Source: Gammaproteobacteria bacterium (GTDB lineage: Bacteria; Pseudomonadota; Gammaproteobacteria; UBA6002). Taken from it: DNA of 64,000 nt. Positions within the stretch are counted from its first letter, which is position 1. Every line of letters starts with the position of its first letter. Both the position numbers and the translations under genes were made by a program. The DNA is taken from contig JACCWJ010000004.1 in the NCBI GenBank assembly GCA_013697705.1, positions 30,938 through 94,937 on the forward strand, given 5' to 3'. Positions 2,887-61,661 of the stretch are shown piece after piece. The notes under the pieces are model-generated. The model searched no databases, was not told the DNA's origin, and saw only the letters and a program-made list of their open reading frames with translations.

Positions 2887-3847
2887 ACCTGTTACGAAGC
2901 CTGTCAAAAAAAAGCCCCAGGTAAAGAAGTCGACCCCCAGTCGTGGGGACAAACGCTTACTTACCAACCATTACAAGGCTTTCACGGATGCACTTAACCA
3001 AAGCATAAGCAGCCCTCTAAGCACGTTAGTTACTTGCACGATTATTGCTATCACGCTGTTCCTAACATCCACCTTGCTCCTTACGTTGAAATCCCTGCAA
3101 CAGGCTACGGATTATATCAACTCAAGCAGCCAGGTGACTATTTATCTTAAAACCAGTGCTCAAGAAAACACTATTTCAGAATGGCTAAATCAACTTAAAC
3201 AAGATCCCGAAATTAAGGCAGTCACTTATATATCTGCAGCACAAGCCTTGCAGGAATTGGCGCAGCAAAAAGACTTTAGTGGTCTATTAACCAATGTAGA
3301 TCAAAACCCTCTGCCCCCTGTCGTGATGTTAAAACTTAATCCAACTACTCCCTCAAAAATCCAAGACTTAAGTCAAAAACTTCGTACTATGCCATTGGTA
3401 GCTAGCATTAATTTAGATTTTGATTGGTTAAACCGTCTGTCTGCCCTAATACAGTTAGGCAACAGACTCAGCTTGGTGCTTTCCATCGTCTTCAGTATTG
3501 GGGTGCTTTTTATCATTAGCCATGCCATTCAAGGAGCTACCCAAAAAAATCGACAAGAAATGGATATTTTGGAGCTTATTGGCGCATCGACCCCTTATAT
3601 AAGACGTCCCTTTTTATACCTCGGTTTTTTGTTGGGATTGGGAGCAGGCATCATTAGTCTGATATTACTGATTGTCCTTCTTATAGCCCTAAAAACGCCG
3701 CTTTTTGAATTGTTACGTTCTTATAATTTGAGTTACTCCACCCTCTTTAGTCTCTCTAAAGTTTTCTTCTTAACGCTCCTTATAAGTACCAGCCTCGGGT
3801 GGGTGGGGGCTTGGCTGGCCTTTTATAAACATGCTAAAATCTCATAA
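2879..3847 (+). CDS. ftsX: Cell-division permease-like protein FtsX
   Basis: 4-bp overlap with ftsE, ~320 aa, N-terminal basic tail then 4 TM segments typical of FtsX. Confidence 0.88.
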   Translation: MRKPVTKPVKKKPQVKKSTPSRGDKRLLTNHYKAFTDALNQSISSPLSTLVTCTIIAITLFLTSTLLLTLKSLQQATDYINSSSQVTIYLKTSAQENTISEWLNQLKQDPEIKAVTYISAAQALQELAQQKDFSGLLTNVDQNPLPPVVMLKLNPTTPSKIQDLSQKLRTMPLVASINLDFDWLNRLSALIQLGNRLSLVLSIVFSIGVLFIISHAIQGATQKNRQEMDILELIGASTPYIRRPFLYLGFLLGLGAGIISLILLIVLLIALKTPLFELLRSYNLSYSTLFSLSKVFFLTLLISTSLGWVGAWLAFYKHAKIS

Positions 3848-3855
3848 TTATTTTT

Positions 3856-3914: not shown

Positions 3915-4766
3915 ATGGGAAAAAATTTACAAAAATTACAGTTTGCTGCCCCAATAGGCAGTCTAGAAGCCTATATTCATTGGGTAAATCAAATTCCACT
4001 ATTGAGTGTCGAAGAAGAAAAAGAGCTAACTCATAACCTCTATTATAACGGCGATTTAGAGGCAGCTCGTCAACTCATCTTATCGCATCTACGCTTTGTT
4101 ATCCGCGTAGCCAAAGGTTACGGCGGTTATGGCCTCCCCCAGTCTGATCTTATTCAAGAAGGCAATATTGGATTAATGAAGGCGGTTAAACGTTTCAATC
4201 CTGAGGTGGGAGTACGTTTAGTGTCTTTTGCTGTCCATTGGATAAAGGCAGAGATCCATGAGTTTATCCTTAAAAACTGGAAAATTGTCAAAGTCGCCAC
4301 GACTAAAGCTCAACGTAAACTTTTTTTTAATTTACGAAAAGCCTCCAAAAATTTAACCTGGTTTTCCCAAAAAGAAGTTCAGGATCTTGCGAATGATTTA
4401 AAGGTGAGCGAAAAAGATGTGCGTAAGATGGAAGCTAGGCTCCATTTACAAGACGAAACTTTTGATCCCCTGATTCAGGACGACGACAGCGAAAGGCAGT
4501 CTCCAGCACATTATTTAGAAGATCATCGCTATGACCCAGCAAGAACACTCGAGGCGGAAGATTGGTCTGAAAGTCGGGAACAAAAACTTCACCTTGTTAT
4601 GGCGAACCTAGATGAAAGAAGCAAAGATATTCTCCAACAACGCTGGCTAGTGGATAAAAAAGCCACTCTTCATGAACTGGCCAGTAAGTACAACGTCTCA
4701 GCAGAACGCATCCGTCAGCTTGAGAAAAATGCGATGAATAAAATCAAAGAATCCCTTCATAACTAG
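3915..4766 (+). CDS. rpoH: RNA polymerase sigma-32 heat-shock factor RpoH
   Basis: Contains the diagnostic RpoH box QRKLFFNLR plus sigma-70 regions 2 and 4; position downstream of ftsYEX as in E. coli. Confidence 0.93.
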
Positions 4767-39735: not shown

Positions 39736-41730
39736 ATGCCACGCCGCCGACACCTTGCTAATGCTATTCGTGCTCTTGCTATGGATTCAGTACAGAAAGC
39801 AAACTCTGGACATCCGGGAATGCCCATGGGAATGGCAGATATTGCAGAAGTCCTCTGGAATGATTTTTTGAAGCATAATCCTGCTAATCCAAATTGGATT
39901 AATAGAGATAGATTTATCCTCTCAAATGGCCATGGTGCCATGCTTCATTACGCCTTATTACATTTAACCGGTTATGATTTAAGCATTGAAGATTTGCAAC
40001 AATTTCGCCAATTACATTCGCGTACGCCTGGACATCCCGAATTTGGTCTTACCCCGGGTGTCGAAACAACGACTGGGCCGCTTGGGCAAGGATTGGCCAA
40101 TGCAGTAGGAATGGCTATTGCAGAAAAAAAATTAGCGAGCGATTTTAATAGAGCTGATTTTTCTATCATCAATCATTTTACCTATGTGTTTGTAGGAGAC
40201 GGTTGTTTGATGGAAGGGATTTCCCATGAAGCCTGTTCTTTGGCAGGTGTTTTAGGCCTAGGCAAATTAATTGCCTTCTATGATGACAATGGCATATCAA
40301 TTGATGGTGAAGTGGCTAATTGGTATAAAGACGACACCCCTGCCCGATTCAACGCATACGGATGGCACGTCATTCCGCATGTGGATGGTCATGATGCTGA
40401 ATCAATACGCCAAGCTATTTTAGAAGCTCAAGCGGTAGAAGATAAACCGACCTTAATTTGTTGCCGCACGGTTATTGCCTACGGAGCTCCTACCCTAGCA
40501 GGAACGTCAGAAGCACACGGGGCTCCTTTAGGAGAAGAGGAAATAAGGTCTACAAGAAAGGCACTGGGTTGGGAGTTTCCTCCCTTTAGCATTCCCGGTG
40601 ATATTTATGAAGGATGGAATGCCAAGGATAAAGGCAGGGAAACCGAACAGTTGTGGCAAGCGCAATTTGATGCTTATTTGGCATCATACCCTGAGCTGGC
40701 GAAAGAGTTTGTAAGACGTATCGAAGGTAAAATGCCTGACAATTGGCAGGAAGAAAGCACTAAATTTATTAGCCAGCTTAATGACAAACATCAAGAAATG
40801 GCCACACGAAAAGCCTCAAAATTATGTCTCGATGCATTCGGACCGCTTTTACCCGAAATGATGGGGGGATCAGCGGATCTTACGGGATCAAATTTAACAT
40901 TGTGGGATGGCTCTCACACGTTCAGTAATGAAACTCCTAGTGGCAATTATATTTATTACGGCGTCAGAGAATTCGGAATGTTCGCCATTATGAATGGGAT
41001 AGCTCTGCATAAAGGGTTACTGCCTTATGGCGGCACTTTTTTAACCTTCGTGGATTACGGCAAAAACGCGGTGCGTTTAAGCGCCCTCATGAAGGCCCAT
41101 GTGGTTTATGTTTTAACGCATGATTCTGTTGGACTCGGAGAAGATGGGCCCACTCATCAACCGATCGAGCATATAAGCATGCTTCGTCTAATTCCCAATC
41201 TTTACGTTTGGCGACCTGGAGATGCTGTGGAAACGGCCGTTGCCTGGAAATATGCAATAGAAAACAAAGTGCCGTCTTGTCTTCTCTTGTCACGGCAAAA
41301 TATTGCTCCTCAATCACATGCTAATAATCTCAATGAGATAGCTAGGGGGGGGTATATATTAACGAGCACTGATCGCGCCCCTGATTTAATTTTAATCGCC
41401 ACTGGCTCCGAAGTATCGCTCGCAGTAGAAGCAGCCGATAAGTTGCAGCAGGATGGTATAGCAGTGCGTGTTGTCTCTATGCCCTGTTTAGAGGTCTTTG
41501 AAGAGCAGCCCAATGATTATCGTGAACATGTTTTACCGAGTGAAAGCACGTGTCGTATCGTGATTGAGGCAGGGTCAACCGCTCCTTGGTACAAGTATGT
41601 AGGCTTGACCGGCAAGGTGATTGGTATTGATCGTTTTGGCGAATCTGCTCCCTATAAAGATGTCTTTAAAACACTTGGTTTTACGACTGAAAATGTAGTT
41701 ACAACTGCAAAAACCTTATTAAACAAATAA
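39736..41730 (+). CDS. tkt: Transketolase
   Basis: N-terminus [32 protein letters not shown] aligns with E. coli TktA from residue 1; ORF-track start 39673 likely over-extended; 664 aa from 39736. Confidence 0.92.
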
Positions 41731-42874: not shown

Positions 42875-44065
42875 ATGTCCCCATTGAAAATGGCTGATCT
42901 TGATTTGAACAATAAACAACTTCTCATCAGAGTTGATCTCAATGTTCCCATTGAAAACGGAAAAATTACCAGCACCACACGTATTGAAGCCATATTGCCT
43001 ACAATACAAATGGCGTGCCAACAAAATGCCAAAGTAATATTAATGTCGCATCTGGGACGGCCTAAAGAAGGATATTATGACGCTGATTTTTCTCTGGCGC
43101 CGGTGGCAACTTATTTAAGTGAACGACTAGGTCAGCCTGTAAAATTAATCGATAAACTCGATACCATCGCCTTACAGCCCGGACAGGTGGTGTTGCTTGA
43201 AAACATACGTTTTATGCAAGGAGAAAAAGAAAATAGCGCCCTCCTTGGAAAAAAATTAGGCGATCTTTGCGATATTTTTGTAATGGATGCTTTCGCAACA
43301 GCGCATAGAAAAGAAGCCTCCACTTATAGTGTGGCTGAGCACGCCCCTGTCGCCTGTGCGGGCCCCTTACTGGTGTCTGAGATGGATGCACTGCAACAAA
43401 TTTTGAAACAACCTGCCAAACCTTTAGTGGCTATTGTCGGCGGGTCAAAAGTATCTACAAAGTTAAGTATCCTCAAAAATATTTTAAAGGATGTCGATGT
43501 CTTAATTGTCGGCGGTGGCATTGCTAATACTTTTTTAGCTGCGAAAGGATATAATGTGGGTAAATCTTTGTATGAGCCTGATCTTATCCCCCAAGCGATT
43601 GAAATGTTAAATTTTGCTGAGCAGAATAATAAAACAATTGCATTGCCCGAAGATGTTGTGGTGGCTAAAGACTTTTCGTCGGAAGCCAAAGCCGTTATCT
43701 TAGACATAGATCAGATTACGGATGAGTTTATTCTAGATATTGGGCCTCGCACTATAAAACGATTATTGCCTATTATTCAGAATGCCAAAACGCTCCTTTG
43801 GAATGGACCCGTAGGACTCTTTGAATGGGAGCAATTTAGCGGTGGCACTGAAGCGTTAGCAAAAGCAATTGCAAATAGCCAAGCTTATACCGTAGCGGGA
43901 GGCGGGGACACGCTCGCTGCGATCGAAAAATACCACGTTAAGGATAGTATCTCGTATATTTCAACAGGAGGCGGAGCCTTCTTGGAAGTTTTAGAAGGGA
44001 AAAAGTTACCGGCAATCGCCATTTTAGAACGTCGTAATGAAAAAAACGATATAACTATTCATTAA
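42875..44065 (+). CDS. pgk: Phosphoglycerate kinase
   Basis: MSPLKMADLDLNNKQLLIRVDLNVP aligns with E. coli Pgk N-terminus (so start 42875 preferred over 42857); 396 aa. Confidence 0.93.
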   Translation: MSPLKMADLDLNNKQLLIRVDLNVPIENGKITSTTRIEAILPTIQMACQQNAKVILMSHLGRPKEGYYDADFSLAPVATYLSERLGQPVKLIDKLDTIALQPGQVVLLENIRFMQGEKENSALLGKKLGDLCDIFVMDAFATAHRKEASTYSVAEHAPVACAGPLLVSEMDALQQILKQPAKPLVAIVGGSKVSTKLSILKNILKDVDVLIVGGGIANTFLAAKGYNVGKSLYEPDLIPQAIEMLNFAEQNNKTIALPEDVVVAKDFSSEAKAVILDIDQITDEFILDIGPRTIKRLLPIIQNAKTLLWNGPVGLFEWEQFSGGTEALAKAIANSQAYTVAGGGDTLAAIEKYHVKDSISYISTGGGAFLEVLEGKKLPAIAILERRNEKNDITIH

Positions 44066-53006: not shown

Positions 53007-53888
53007 GTGATTGAAATGTTGCAAACGCTAAATCTTTTAAATTGGGATGAACCTGTTTCTCAGGAGACACAACAGTTTGCTTTAACTGCCCTGGAGTCAG
53101 GGGAGGTAATGTATTTGCCTGAGTTATCTTTCAGACTGTTTCCTCAAGAAAAAGTTTTTTTGTCTCATCACTATGCTAGTCCAAAAACTAAAAATGTTAG
53201 TTTTGATTGGAATCACTCGATGCTTCAAGGGGCAGTTTGTACCAAAACTGAATCGATACAGCTCACTCAGATGCTCAACCGTTATGCCACTTATACCAAG
53301 CAATTGTTGACCAATTTATTTCCTCTCTATCAAGACGAGGTTGAACAAGGGCGTACCAGTTTTCGTCCTGTTGAAATAATGGGCAGAGTAAGTCCTTCCT
53401 ATCGTAAAGATGATACAAGGCTTCACGTCGATGCTTTTCCTTCCACTCCCACTCAAGGAAAACGAATCTTGCGTGTTTTCACTAATGTGAATCCAGCGCA
53501 TCCACGAGTCTGGCGAATTGGTGCCCCTTTTAATAAAGTAATTGAATATTTCTACCCGAAGTTGCGAGCACCGGTGGTGGGTGCTGCCACGATGTTAAAT
53601 GCTTTAAAAATAACGAAGCAGAAACGGACCCCTTATGATCATTACATGTTACAGCTGCACAACGCAATGAAGGCTGATATGGAGTATCAAGAACAGGTGC
53701 CCCAAACTCAGCAACTTTTTCAGCCAGGTAGTTCCTGGATTGTATATACCGATCAAGTGTCTCACGCTGCAATGGCAGGCCAATTTACCTTCGAGCAAAC
53801 TTTTTATGTGCCCCCTCATGCCCTCGACGAGATAGAGAAATCTCCCTGTAAAATTCTTGAGAAATTTTTGCGAAAACCTTTGTTGTAA
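53007..53888 (+). CDS. Fe(II)/2-oxoglutarate-dependent dioxygenase, KdoO (Kdo 3-hydroxylase)-like
   Basis: 293 aa, size and HxD (LHVDAF) ... distal His arrangement consistent with KdoO family as I recall it; no paralog context. Confidence 0.45.
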   Translation: MIEMLQTLNLLNWDEPVSQETQQFALTALESGEVMYLPELSFRLFPQEKVFLSHHYASPKTKNVSFDWNHSMLQGAVCTKTESIQLTQMLNRYATYTKQLLTNLFPLYQDEVEQGRTSFRPVEIMGRVSPSYRKDDTRLHVDAFPSTPTQGKRILRVFTNVNPAHPRVWRIGAPFNKVIEYFYPKLRAPVVGAATMLNALKITKQKRTPYDHYMLQLHNAMKADMEYQEQVPQTQQLFQPGSSWIVYTDQVSHAAMAGQFTFEQTFYVPPHALDEIEKSPCKILEKFLRKPLL

Positions 53889-56899: not shown

Positions 56900-57625
56900 A
56901 TGCGAATTTCTCGATTCTATTACAATGGTCCATTAAGTAAAGATACCATTGTTAAGCTTTGCGAAGAAACTAGCCATTACATACTGCATGTTTTGCGCTT
57001 AAAGGTAGGGGCGAAAAGCGTATTGTTCAATGGTGATGGTAAAGATTATCTTGCAATACTGACGGACTGCTCCAAAAAAATAGTCACCTTAGAGATACAA
57101 GAGTCCATTAATGTTCATAAAGAGTCGCCGCTTAAAATTCATTTAGTCCAGGGAATTTCACGGGGTGAAAAAATGGATTGGACGATCCAAAAAGCAGTCG
57201 AGCTCGGGGTGACAGAAATCACGCCTATTATCACAGAGCATTGCTCTATTAAACTGGATGCAAGTCGCAGAGAAAAGCGTTTAGTGCATTGGCAAAAGAT
57301 TATGGTTAGCGCGTGTGAGCAATCGGGTCGTAGCAGCCTGCCCTCGCTAAATCCCATTGTTCAATTTGAGGACTGGATTTATCATCCCAGGCAGGAGATG
57401 AAATTATTCTGCGATCCTAACAGTAGCCAGCGCTTGTCTCATCTTCCCGCTGCACAAGAGATATTACTCATTATTGGTCCCGAAGGCGGTTTATCAAACA
57501 ATGAAATTTCTCTGGCGAACAAATATAACTTCACCGGTATCTCTCTTGGTCCTCGAATTCTTAGAACAGAAACGGCCGCAGTGTCTGCTATAAGTGTTGC
57601 TCAAGCGTTGTGGGGCGATCTATAA
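56900..57625 (+). CDS. rsmE: 16S rRNA m3U1498 methyltransferase RsmE
   Basis: 241 aa; N-terminal PUA-like domain, SPOUT C-terminus with GPEGG motif (IIGPEGGLS). Confidence 0.85.
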   Translation: MRISRFYYNGPLSKDTIVKLCEETSHYILHVLRLKVGAKSVLFNGDGKDYLAILTDCSKKIVTLEIQESINVHKESPLKIHLVQGISRGEKMDWTIQKAVELGVTEITPIITEHCSIKLDASRREKRLVHWQKIMVSACEQSGRSSLPSLNPIVQFEDWIYHPRQEMKLFCDPNSSQRLSHLPAAQEILLIIGPEGGLSNNEISLANKYNFTGISLGPRILRTETAAVSAISVAQALWGDL

Positions 57626-57727
57626 GGCGAGTCATTCAATTCAATTCTGTGGGAAATTCGCGATTGCAGTTGTAGTCTATATGCTTGTTAGGGATTATTT
57701 ATTCAATTAATTTGGCCTAATAAAATA

Positions 57728-57769
57728 GCTAAATGATTGATTCTAAATGATTGATTCTAAATGATTGTT
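57728..57769. repeat. Three tandem copies of a 14-bp unit (ctaaatgattgatt x2 + ctaaatgattgtta)
   Basis: Read directly; lies in 450-bp non-coding gap upstream of candidate sRNA. Confidence 0.8.
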
Positions 57770-57904
57770 AAATTCACAGGTATTTTTCAATACTGTAATT
57801 TTTACTTTGGTATCTTGTAACTCTAGCTGATTGCATTAGAGTGCCCATGGAATTGGGACGGAGTGGCTAGGATAGCAGCATAAGCATTTGCTTGTGGTAG
57901 ATAC

Positions 57905-58025
57905 CAAATGGAAATTTATGGTTTGCTCAGGGAGTGAGAGCTAAGCAAAGGAGTGTTGTGTCAGTTTTCAGGCAAGGATTGCCTGGAGGGGGCGGTTGAT
58001 CATTCAATTGCCTCCTTTTTTATTT
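57905..58025 (+). ncRNA. Candidate CsrA/RsmA-sequestering sRNA (CsrB/RsmY/RsmZ-like): five GGA motifs, stem-loops presenting GGA, strong terminator
   Basis: GGA at 57910, 57931 (gcuc-AGGGAguga-gagc), 57950 (CAAAGGAGUG), 57976 (ggca-AGGAu-ugcc hairpin), 57985; terminator stem 57985-58015 (ggcgguug/caauugcc, G-U wobbles) + U8 at 58016-58023; no ORF; 5' end uncertain. Confidence 0.45.
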
Positions 58026-58076
58026 AAAACTAGCTTTTCAGTGTTCATTTTGTACAATAACTCTTTCCCCTAAGTT

Positions 58077-58472
58077 TTGAGTTGTTTTATGACAGATTGG
58101 ACCTTTCTTATTCCTCTCTTCGGTCGTTTCTTACTTGCTTCTTATTTTTTAAAAGCAGGGATCAACAATGCACTTCATTGGCACAAAGTCTTAGGCTTAA
58201 TTAAATTCAAGAAAATTCCCTTTCCTAATCTAGTCTTATTTGCCGTAATTGCCACGCAAATTGTAGGCTCGCTGGCTATTATTTTTAATTATTACGCTGT
58301 CATTGCCTCGATTGCCTTAATTATTTTTACCTTGGTCGCTAATTTTTTAGTGTGTAATTATTGGAAAATGGAGGGAGTACAGCGCAGAAATGTCTCTTTT
58401 ATCTTTTACGCTAACATTGCAGTAATAGGTGCATTATTGCTTATTACTTCTATGGCGCCTGGAATTTACTAA
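58077..58472 (+). CDS. DoxX-family inner-membrane protein
   Basis: 131 aa, four TM helices, WTFLIPLFGRFLLASYFLKAG N-terminal pattern typical of DoxX; start may be ATG 58089. Confidence 0.7.
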   Translation: MSCFMTDWTFLIPLFGRFLLASYFLKAGINNALHWHKVLGLIKFKKIPFPNLVLFAVIATQIVGSLAIIFNYYAVIASIALIIFTLVANFLVCNYWKMEGVQRRNVSFIFYANIAVIGALLLITSMAPGIY

Positions 58473-60338: not shown

Positions 60339-60617
60339 TCATTTTTTTCGTATAGGTTATGAAAGGATCAGTTTTAAATTTTACGGGACCTGCAAAAGCA
60401 CGCAAATAATCCCATTTATTTCCTGTCTTATCAAGAACCTTTCTGTAGTCTAGTTAAATACAACTGTGCATTATTAAAAAAAAGAAGTCATTGCCGCTTA
60501 ACCAGCAGCCCGTAGACCTCATTTTTAACAGATTATACAGCTATAATTTTCTAAAGGGCTGTTATTAATGAGACGGAGCTCATGGCTATCTCAACGATTA
60601 CACTAAGGAGGTTGATT

Positions 60618-61073
60618 ATGAAAACCACCTGGATCTTAATTGCTAACGCGAGTGAAGCTCGATTATTTCAAGCAGAAAAAGTCACAAAAAAGATATTGCT
60701 CATCGATGAATTTTTCCATCCTGCCAGCCGCAAAAAAATTGCGAGTCTAGTCACTGACGTGCCAGGTCGCTATCGTAAATCGACCTCTACCCCGCTCAGC
60801 TCTTTTGAAGAGACATTTAATCCGAAGCAAGCAGAAGCCCTGCGTTTTGCGCGTGAATTAGCTGAAAAGCTCAACCTAGGGAGAGCCACTAATCGTTATA
60901 CTAATCTTATTCTGGTAGCGCCGCCTCATTTTCAGGGCTTGTTGAATAAATGTTGCAATCACCATGTAAAAAATCTAATTAGCAACACCCTCGATAAAGA
61001 TTACACAAAAATAAGAGAATATGATTTGCCGCATTACCTTAATGGCAAGCTATCATTTCGCAATGCCGCGTAG
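60618..61073 (+). CDS. Host-attachment protein family (PF10116-like)
   Basis: MKTTWILIANASEARLFQ N-terminus typical of this family; strong RBS aggagg 8 nt upstream of ATG 60618 (ORF-track start 60582 over-extended); ~151 aa. Confidence 0.5.
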   Translation: MKTTWILIANASEARLFQAEKVTKKILLIDEFFHPASRKKIASLVTDVPGRYRKSTSTPLSSFEETFNPKQAEALRFARELAEKLNLGRATNRYTNLILVAPPHFQGLLNKCCNHHVKNLISNTLDKDYTKIREYDLPHYLNGKLSFRNAA

Positions 61074-61133: not shown

Positions 61134-61661
61134 TTACGTTGTAACTTGATGGGCCTGCAAACTGTCACCCGCGTTATTTTCTAAGAAATGCACAGTGGTT
61201 CCTATGCTGAGCTCTGCAAAAGGAACTTGGAGAACATTTGTTTCGTGAAAATAATATTCATTGCCCTCTGAGGTTTCAATGAATCCATAATCGGGAAACA
61301 AACGCACTATTTTGCCGGTAAGTTGCAGTTGGTGACTTTTAGTGGCACCTCGCAAAATATCGACGTAATCTTCTAGTTGGCGTTTCATCGCATTAAACGA
61401 ATCACGAATTGCCACATACAAATCTTCATTGCGATGACTGTGACGATTTACTACTAGCACTTTACCGGGGACATCAACTTCAATATTAACTTGAAATTCT
61501 TTTCCTTGATGTTTGTTTTTTTGTGGCGCTTCAACCACAACTCGACAGTAAATGATGCGATCATATAAATGATGTAGTTTTTCAGCTTTTTGCCTGATTT
61601 TGGTGTCAATTGCTTCGGTGTGCTCAATGTCGCGAATAGTAATTTCTAATGGTAATTGCAT
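61134..61661 (-). CDS. hpf: Ribosome hibernation promoting factor (HPF/RaiA, S30AE family) fused to C-terminal cold-shock-domain-like module
   Basis: N-terminal 105 aa align with E. coli HPF (MQL.I...TEA....KLHHLYDRI..VVV...DLYVAIRDSFNAMKRQL); C-terminal 65 aa TGKIVRLFPDYGFIETSEGNEYYFHETNV...GTTVHF resembles CspA fold pattern (G.V..F...GFI....G...FH...V). Confidence 0.7.
   Translation of the reverse strand: MQLPLEITIRDIEHTEAIDTKIRQKAEKLHHLYDRIIYCRVVVEAPQKNKHQGKEFQVNIEVDVPGKVLVVNRHSHRNEDLYVAIRDSFNAMKRQLEDYVDILRGATKSHQLQLTGKIVRLFPDYGFIETSEGNEYYFHETNVLQVPFAELSIGTTVHFLENNAGDSLQAHQVTT

Follow-up and report, generated by a model that had tools for sequence, protein, structure and literature searches.

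Small RNAs (sRNAs) known to regulate CsrA have five features in common: an intergenic position, a high density of AGGA/ARGGA motifs, a rho-independent terminator, GGA motifs in loops or free regions of the structure, and a conserved upstream site of the UvrY/GacA type (Kulkarni et al. 2006, PMC1488887). Here, we analyzed a 64-kb stretch of contig JACCWJ010000004.1 from an uncultured gammaproteobacterium (64,000 nucleotides, referred to as the window), in which an earlier note had proposed a CsrB/RsmY/RsmZ-like sRNA between rsmE and doxX, with RsmY/RsmZ (and RsmX) of Legionella pneumophila as its functional model. The element, at approximately 57849–58023 on the plus strand, is very probably a conserved, independently transcribed sRNA gene, and the RNA it encodes is most likely a CsrA/RsmA-sequestering RNA of the CsrB/RsmY/RsmZ functional class, an assignment that we regard as probable. 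The independent intergenic sRNA, its terminator, and its GGA loops withstood the analysis and were much strengthened by conservation in seven orthologs; the proposed extent, the LetA/GacA box, and the link to Legionellales did not.

Described members of this class include Vibrio fischeri CsrB1 with 21 motifs in 416 nt (PMC1488887), and Pseudomonas aeruginosa RsmY and RsmW with seven GGA each, those of RsmW being spread over 224 nt with three in loops (PMC4950607). RsmW is derived from a 3′ untranslated region (3′-UTR), and the GacA upstream activating sequence of P. aeruginosa rsmZ is located at −196 (PMC4950607). RsmY and RsmZ of L. pneumophila are short sRNAs with GGA loops that titrate CsrA under LetA/LetS control (PMC5338858, PMC5928044). 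The rsmY gene is flanked by gyrB and lpp0005 and the rsmZ gene by lpp1662 and lpp1663 (PMC1488887), the latter coding for a minimal ProQ homolog (PMC7668265). Escherichia coli CsrB served as control for the procedures used in this work. It gave 22 GGA in 369 nt (6.0 per 100 nt) versus 14.7 ± 2.6 in dinucleotide-preserving shuffles, from which all GGA expectations were taken. Upstream boxes were scored as matches to the 12 fixed positions of TGTAAG-N6-CTTACA, at the locus studied from the rsmE stop codon to the −35 element, and the same scoring recovered the known box of E. coli csrB with 11/12 matches at −191. E. coli McaS is an atypical CsrA-binding sRNA that also acts by base pairing.

Comparison with described Csr/Rsm RNAs

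The first four features listed by Kulkarni et al. 2006 (PMC1488887) were found at the locus: the RNA lies within the 463-bp rsmE–doxX gap, its GGA density is high (and equaled in some coding stretches of the window), its terminator stem is followed by a T tract, and GGA is repeated in loops and free regions of the predicted structure. As to the fifth, the best upstream site in the window scores 9/12, and such sites are unaligned among the orthologs.

In architecture, there is a likeness to Pseudomonas RsmZ and RsmY (Rfam families PrrB_RsmZ and RsmY, clan CL00106), which, like the RNA studied here, are intergenic, comprise 100–200 nt, and contain 7–9 GGA, several of them in apical loops. As in these RNAs, the last GGA hairpin adjoins the rho-independent terminator, and the weak promoter may, as that of rsmZ, rely on a far-upstream activator site. 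Differences are the lack of homology at Rfam thresholds, the 9/12 upstream box, the genomic context, and the lack of a second or third paralog, none being found in the window (searched with filters off) or around the related loci. With enteric CsrB (RF00018), the 3′ GGA hairpin and terminator align to the CsrB 3′ end at a sub-threshold score; the GGA density is comparable (5.1 versus 6.0 per 100 nt in E. coli), as is the position of the candidate upstream box (−228 versus −191). However, CsrB presents its 22 GGA in approximately 18 near-identical repeats, whereas the RNA studied here has three conserved hairpins, termed H2, H2b, and H3, plus a variable region.

From L. pneumophila RsmY/RsmZ the RNA differs in gene context, its neighborhood being argR-rsmE-[RNA]-doxX/DUF2387 in seven orthologs. 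RsmW of P. aeruginosa provides a precedent for a CsrA/RsmA-binding RNA with few GGA, without a good GacA box, and with a 3′-UTR origin (PMC4950607); unlike RsmW and McaS, the RNA described here has its own conserved promoter-like element. At gathering thresholds, no Rfam family, riboswitch and leader families included, matched the window at any position. The best match under permissive settings was to CsrB with 15.7 bits versus a cutoff of 71 (local E = 0.028). As judged from sequence, the RNA is a new family within a well-known functional class.

Conservation of the element in related loci

Ortholog loci were obtained from contigs encoding the closest RsmE relatives. The set comprised the window and loci L045 (identical to L044 and L046), L047 (close to L048), L050, L051, L052, and L070. 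The element was present in all six further distinct loci, which gives, together with the window, seven distinct sequences from uncultured Gammaproteobacteria. When a covariance model was derived from the six loci other than the window, it matched 57897–58024 of the window (plus strand) with 82.3 bits (E = 3.4e-17). This was the only significant match in 64 kb, the next one having E = 0.92. Recurrence of the GGA hairpins in orthologous loci, on which the earlier note had made its proposal depend, was confirmed, with H2 and H3 present in 7/7. In the ortholog alignment, the 3′ part of the element (approximately 125 nt) showed 73% mean column identity and contained two invariant blocks, CTCAKGGAGTGAG and TTnTCAGGCAnGGA..GCCTGG, that coincide exactly with the GGA hairpins H2 and H3. 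The terminator follows 3′ of both blocks; its arms differ among species while their complementarity is kept. By its conservation, the element is to be taken as a real, selected non-coding element.

The loci share the gene order aldehyde dehydrogenase, argR (minus strand), rsmE (plus strand), a gap of 300–780 bp, and doxX and/or a DUF2387 gene. Conservation of the element extends over considerable protein divergence: RsmE of the ortholog loci is only 51–57% identical to that of the window (57% for the nearest relatives); the relatives of the window's MnmG are 75–81% identical. An RsmE search of genome contigs yielded only relatives of ≤48% identity (Shewanella, Marinobacter, and others), and the element was absent within ±4 kb of all of these. 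It was also absent from the loci of the RsmE relatives P0016 and P0010, which have a different synteny and short gaps. Scanning metagenomes with a first pattern gave 0 matches and with a second pattern 17, all of them chance matches lacking the terminator or the upstream block; in blastn searches, the element matched neither plasmids nor E. coli genomes. Among the best 120 RsmE or MnmG matches, no Legionella or Coxiella proteins were found, and the gene contexts differ, so that the earlier placement in a Legionellales framework is without support.

The gap, previously given as an ORF-free stretch of approximately 450 bp, measures 463 bp and contains no open reading frame (ORF) of ≥30 amino acids lying wholly within it; the ORFs present code for ≤26 amino acids and mostly have non-ATG starts. 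A coding function of the element was ruled out on the basis of this lack of ORFs and of ortholog indels that are not multiples of three. The minus strand was likewise ruled out as the functional strand, because it is the plus strand that carries the terminator and the promoter-like element and that is favored by the GGA/TCC asymmetry.

GGA enrichment

The predicted 175-nt RNA of the window contains nine GGA, four of them in A(R)GGA, versus 4.72 ± 1.50 in shuffles (P = 0.0065). Individual GGA numbers of the seven RNAs are 9, 12, 4, 8, 10, 6, and 15; the pooled number of 64 compares with 40.5 ± 4.2 expected and was reached by 0 of 2000 shuffles. In agreement, the 5′ parts of the seven orthologs, which cannot be aligned, contain 29 GGA versus 18.6 ± 2.7 in shuffles. 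GGA is the most enriched trinucleotide of the family (4.1-fold over the window background), and its complement TCC occurs only seven times. Densities range from 2.4 to 7.2 GGA per 100 nt in the family, with 5.1 for the RNA of the window, and the numbers published for P. aeruginosa RsmY and RsmW and for V. fischeri CsrB1 are of a similar order.

The rsmE–doxX gap contains 11 GGA on the plus versus two on the minus strand and has the highest plus-strand GGA density among the gaps of the window below approximately 500 nt; its five A(R)GGA are exceeded by no inter-ORF gap of the window. Taken by itself, the density has parallels elsewhere in the window, as two coding stretches also reach nine GGA per 180 nt. 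Coding stretches with a GGA or A(R)GGA density at least as high as that of the sRNA were located at 40457–40680 (plus strand), 43805–43985 (plus strand), and 53260–53500 (minus strand). A search by motif density without restriction to intergenic DNA would yield false positives.

The earlier note had counted five GGA in the 110 nt preceding the terminator. All five are present (57910, 57931, 57950, 57976, and 57985), but the last one is part of the terminator stem. In the predicted structure of the window RNA, three GGA are located in hairpin loops (57870, 57931, and 57976) and one in a free region (57950), and the mean unpaired probability exceeds 0.5 for six of the nine.

Hairpins and terminator

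The full-length window RNA folds with a minimum free energy of −58.7 kcal/mol (z = −3.29). In the alignment, 94.2% of the cells of the whole consensus structure (four helices) are paired, versus 36–53% when the 3′ partners are slid by 1–3 columns. The coordinates of the individual parts are listed in Table 1.

H2 is invariant in 7/7 orthologs with the exception of G/U at the first loop base, all four pairs being identical. A GGA hairpin had been noted before at 57925–57941; it does exist there, but the GCUC...GAGC stem assigned to it cannot form in the other orthologs, and it is CUCA-GGGAG-UGAG that is kept. The stem of H2b is weak when taken alone (−0.7 kcal/mol); its middle pair is C-G in four orthologs, A-U in one, and U-A in one, and L047 retains the stem and has lost the GGA. 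The ACA-nnGGA-UGU form of H2b seen in most orthologs resembles the consensus RUACARGGAUGU that systematic evolution of ligands by exponential enrichment reportedly gave for CsrA in the work of Dubey et al. 2005. H3 has a free energy of −10.5 kcal/mol (z = −3.4), and seven of its eight pairs never vary. It was previously described with the shorter stem ggca-AGGAu-ugcc and is borne out in its extended form; the CsrA-like motif CAAGGAUUG pointed out within it is present at 57973–57981, one base off the position given before. The GGA of H3 has an unpaired probability of 0.95–1.0 in six orthologs and of 0.51 in L045. Strict joint conservation of stem and loop, as in H2 and H3, would be expected if these were protein-binding hairpins. 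The loop GGA of H2, H2b, and H3 are spaced by 19 and 26 nt, a range that a CsrA dimer is said to bridge.

The intrinsic terminator has a free energy of −21.8 kcal/mol (z = −6.7) and is the only terminator-like site in 57400–58300. Three of its pairs are changed on both sides across the orthologs, and 94% of the helix cells are paired. The plus-strand terminator of the earlier note thus stands with a stem of 15 pairs; its tract is T6-A-T3 rather than U8.

Promoter-like element and extent of the RNA

The sequence TTGyAA-N16-TAnAGT followed by GC occurs at the equivalent place, with identical 16-nt spacing, in 7/7 orthologs. It was missed by a generic promoter scan because the scan requires 9/12 matches to the sigma-70 consensus and the element scores 8/12. 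Weak promoters of this sort usually need an activator. From the position of this conserved element, we infer a 5′ end near 57849, which sets the length of the predicted RNA to approximately 175 nt in the window, with its nine GGA, and to 162–225 nt in the orthologs. A transcript of 60–130 nt, as expected previously, is therefore not borne out. Between the predicted start and the conserved core, length and sequence vary among orthologs.

The near-palindrome CATAAGCATTTGCTTGTG, which had been taken for a GacA/LetA upstream activating box, is present as described, but its assignment was ruled out: it is situated within the predicted transcript, approximately 30 nt from its start, has a score of 7/12, and finds no alignable counterpart in the orthologs. 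In the RNA it forms a hairpin of −8.2 kcal/mol (z = −3.0) in the variable 5′ part.

Table 1. Features of the rsmE–doxX intergenic region and its flanks (window coordinates).
Feature	Position	Strand	Description
rsmE	56900–57625	+	16S rRNA m3U1498 methyltransferase gene
rsmE–doxX gap	57626–58088		463 bp
Best UvrY/GacA-like match (tentative)	57621–57638		TATAAGGCGAGTCATTCA, 9/12; overlaps rsmE stop codon, approximately −228 from predicted start
Conserved upstream block	57648–57688	+	Two TGTnnG half-sites in direct repeat, TGTGGG at 57648 and TGTAGT at 57671, 23 bp apart
Tandem repeat	57729–57770		Three copies of CTAAATGATTGATT between upstream block and promoter
Promoter-like element	57815–57842	+	−35 TTGTAA (57815–57820), 16-nt spacer, −10 TAGAGT (57837–57842), then GC
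Predicted sRNA	57849–58023	+	Approximately 175 nt; GGA at 57849, 57856, 57860, 57870, 57910, 57931, 57950, 57976, 57985
Variable 5′ region	57849–57903	+	Four GGA; hairpin GCUA-GGA-UAGC (57866–57876); length and sequence not conserved, GGA enrichment kept
Former 'LetA box' CATAAGCATTTGCTTGTG	57879–57896	+	Inside transcript; window-specific RNA hairpin without GGA
Linker with GGA	57904–57925	+	CCAAAUGGAAAUUUAUGGUUUG in window; ...AAAGGAAAGUUUCAUAGUUCUUC nearly invariant in the other six orthologs
Hairpin H2	57926–57938	+	CUCA-GGGAG-UGAG; loop GGA 57931–57933; CUCA-KGGAG-UGAG across family
Hairpin H2b	57944–57957	+	AGCA-AAGGAG-UGUU in window; ACA-nnGGA-UGU in most orthologs
Hairpin H3	57969–57985	+	CAGGCA-AGGAU-UGCCUG; apical GGA 57976–57978; abuts terminator
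Intrinsic terminator	57985–58025	+	15-bp stem (57985–58018), 4-nt loop, T6-A-T3 tract (58016–58025)
doxX	58089–58472	+	Pfam DoxX

Upstream region

Sites with at least 9/12 matches to TGTAAG-N6-CTTACA were found in 5/7 orthologous upstream regions, at a window-wide frequency of such sites of 0.34 per kb. In addition to the site in the window, these are TGTAAGTATTTACTGATA in L045 (10/12), TGTGAGATATTTCTCACA in L051 (10/12, a perfect palindrome), and one site each in L050 and L052 (9/12 each). Relative to the predicted start, four of the five are located at approximately −165 to −230 and that of L051 at approximately −350. These distances are comparable to those of the boxes of E. coli csrB and P. 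aeruginosa rsmZ given above. If there is a GacA-type site, it would be found 165–230 bp ahead of the start, close to the stop codon of rsmE.

A block that is conserved in position (57671) scores only 5–7/12 versus the GacA consensus. It contains a pair of TGTnnG half-sites just 3′ of the rsmE stop codon in 6/7 orthologs, L045 being the one that lacks it. The spacing is exactly 23 bp in the window, L047 (4762/4785), L050 (1345/1368), L051 (3005/3028), and L070 (3719/3742), and 26 bp in L052 (3738/3764). This direct repeat is a possible activator site that differs from the canonical inverted repeat of GacA. The reverse complement of the tandem repeat unit, AATCAATCATTTA, fits the consensus of integration host factor (WATCAANNNNTTR). 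It is tempting to speculate that the repeat is a bending site, which would suit a bent promoter activated from far upstream, like that of Pseudomonas fluorescens rsmZ; in the orthologs it is not conserved as a repeat.

In four orthologs, a block TTTAAT-N5-CTTAAG-nTTA was observed approximately 35–45 nt upstream of the −35 element (L045, ~1445–1465; L050, ~1464–1482; L051, ~1268–1290 region; L070, ~3830–3850). It is absent from the window copy and could be an UP-like element or a site for a second regulator.

Neighboring genes and further observations

The flanking rsmE codes for the 16S rRNA m3U1498 methyltransferase, with homologs assigned to Pfam Methyltrans_RNA/PUA_4, and is unrelated to the CsrA-family protein also named RsmE. 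Downstream, doxX is followed by a DUF2387 gene and a pentapeptide-repeat gene. In L052, the called DoxX gene (4029–4544, 171 amino acids) begins inside the sRNA, the H3 hairpin of which starts at 4039. Other DoxX orthologs have 125–127 amino acids, and the ORF call in L052 has probably been extended too far, across the terminator of the sRNA.

A eukaryotic-type Ser/Thr kinase (Pkinase, 583 amino acids) is encoded in a relative (L044, 1–503), and Host_attach/baeRF_family12 proteins are encoded in the window (60582–61073) and in relatives (L047, 7862–8317). Both are weak hints of a host-associated lifestyle and give no placement in Legionellales. On the minus strand of the window, at 61134–61658, a 174-amino acid ORF has an S30AE/hibernation-factor domain at residues 5–100 and a weak C-terminal match to a cold-shock domain (22.3 bits, below the Pfam cutoff of 27), a pairing that would be unusual if real. 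The MnmG protein P0222, labeled Kaarinaea lacus, is 71% identical to that of the window and ranks among gammaproteobacterial matches. In the NCBI taxonomy, Kaarinaea lacus belongs to the Cyanobacteria, order Nostocales; contamination of the assembly may explain this match.

Discussion

A CsrA/RsmA sponge RNA would act at this locus as follows. Transcription would be driven by the weak sigma-70-type promoter conserved in all orthologs, for which an activator bound far upstream, close to the end of rsmE, is probably required, as is the case for E. coli csrB (−191) and P. aeruginosa rsmZ (−196), and would stop at the strong intrinsic terminator. The RNA would display GGA in the loops of H2, H2b, and H3, together with further GGA in the variable 5′ region. 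CsrA/RsmA dimers would bind to pairs of these sites and thereby be titrated from their mRNA targets, which would relieve CsrA-mediated translational control.

Several observations weigh against this assignment. Membership in the Rfam clan CL00106 (CsrB RF00018, CsrC, RsmY, PrrB_RsmZ, and rsmX) was not reached, and the orthologs L070 and L051 gave no match to the Csr clan even at E values up to 10. Neither a csrA-like ORF nor a gacA/uvrY homolog was found within the 64-kb window, and the GacA-like upstream sites are imperfect and not positionally aligned among orthologs. L047 has only four GGA and is not enriched over shuffles (P = 0.48), and the predicted accessible GGA are 6/9 in the window versus 19/22 in E. 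coli CsrB. As H2 and H3 are invariant, their stems are without covariation support in the seven sequences. Finally, the linker upstream of H2 is nearly invariant over 20 nt in six orthologs, which exceeds what a pure sponge, displaying GGA, needs.

This last point would suit a base-pairing, Hfq- or ProQ-dependent trans-acting sRNA. In such an RNA, the U/C-rich block upstream of H2 (AGUUUCAUAGUUCUUCUCA in the six orthologs) would act as seed and the terminator as handle for the chaperone, with GGA being either incidental or of additional use, as in E. coli McaS. The strong terminator with its U tail and the single-copy gene with its own promoter would be in keeping with such an sRNA as well. 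However, the window copy of the block has a 3-nt deletion and several substitutions relative to the other six orthologs, and H2 and H3 are unchanged; because these hairpins stay invariant while the linker block degenerates, the GGA hairpins are the most constrained part of the RNA. An enrichment of GGA is likewise seen in the non-conserved 5′ region and would not follow from a seed model. No target came to light, no search aimed at one having been made. We therefore consider a base-pairing sRNA unlikely. The linker as an antisense seed to a ribosome-binding site plus AUG was ruled out for lack of conservation in the window copy.

A cis-acting element would be either a leader or attenuator that contains the terminator and belongs to the doxX-DUF2387 operon, or an rsmE 3′-UTR released by processing. 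A co-oriented doxX or DUF2387 gene is located approximately 65–135 nt 3′ of the element in every locus, no terminator was predicted between rsmE and the element, so that read-through is possible, and RsmW of P. aeruginosa does stem from a 3′-UTR (PMC4950607). But the promoter-like element lies between rsmE and the RNA in 7/7 orthologs, which also argues against the objection raised in the earlier note that the terminator might belong to an rsmE 3′-UTR without an independent 5′ end. Further, L047 and L051 have kept the element although doxX itself is missing there, the terminator arms vary while the upstream blocks are invariant, so that no conserved antiterminator pairing is apparent, and no riboswitch or leader family of Rfam matched; a cis-acting role is thus very unlikely. 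The remaining alternative is a structured RNA with another partner or another role, the GGA richness of which would reflect a purine-rich composition. It could explain why GGG, AGG, and GAG are enriched, too (2.2–3.1-fold), and why the Csr models of Rfam do not recognize the family. Yet GGA exceeds the expectation from shuffles that hold the dinucleotide composition fixed, and the conserved loops contain GGA where CsrA sites are expected, which renders this explanation the most improbable of those considered.

Sequestration of CsrA/RsmA may also be only one part of the function. In a more speculative and rather improbable version, the RNA would be a dual-function regulator in an unstudied, possibly host-associated gammaproteobacterial lineage. 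The GGA hairpins would titrate CsrA, the U/C-rich block of approximately 20 nt would pair with mRNAs or recruit Hfq/ProQ, and transcription would depend on the TGTnnG direct repeats 23 bp apart instead of a canonical GacA palindrome. If true, this would give a Csr system a regulatory input of a new kind.

A sponge RNA at this locus leaves the understanding of how such RNAs work unchanged and would not surprise a specialist. Csr/Rsm sponge RNAs evolve fast, and homology searches miss them outside well-studied genera, as illustrated by the lack of any Rfam match here. The value of the locus lies in a curated new family and in a test case for predicting sponge RNAs by conservation, not by motif counts alone. 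Through it, an uncultured gammaproteobacterial clade gains a seven-member sequence family that has a fixed gene context and for which a working covariance model is available. With such a family model, annotators would be able to mark the RNA in these genomes and to seek a Gac/Csr-type cascade in them.

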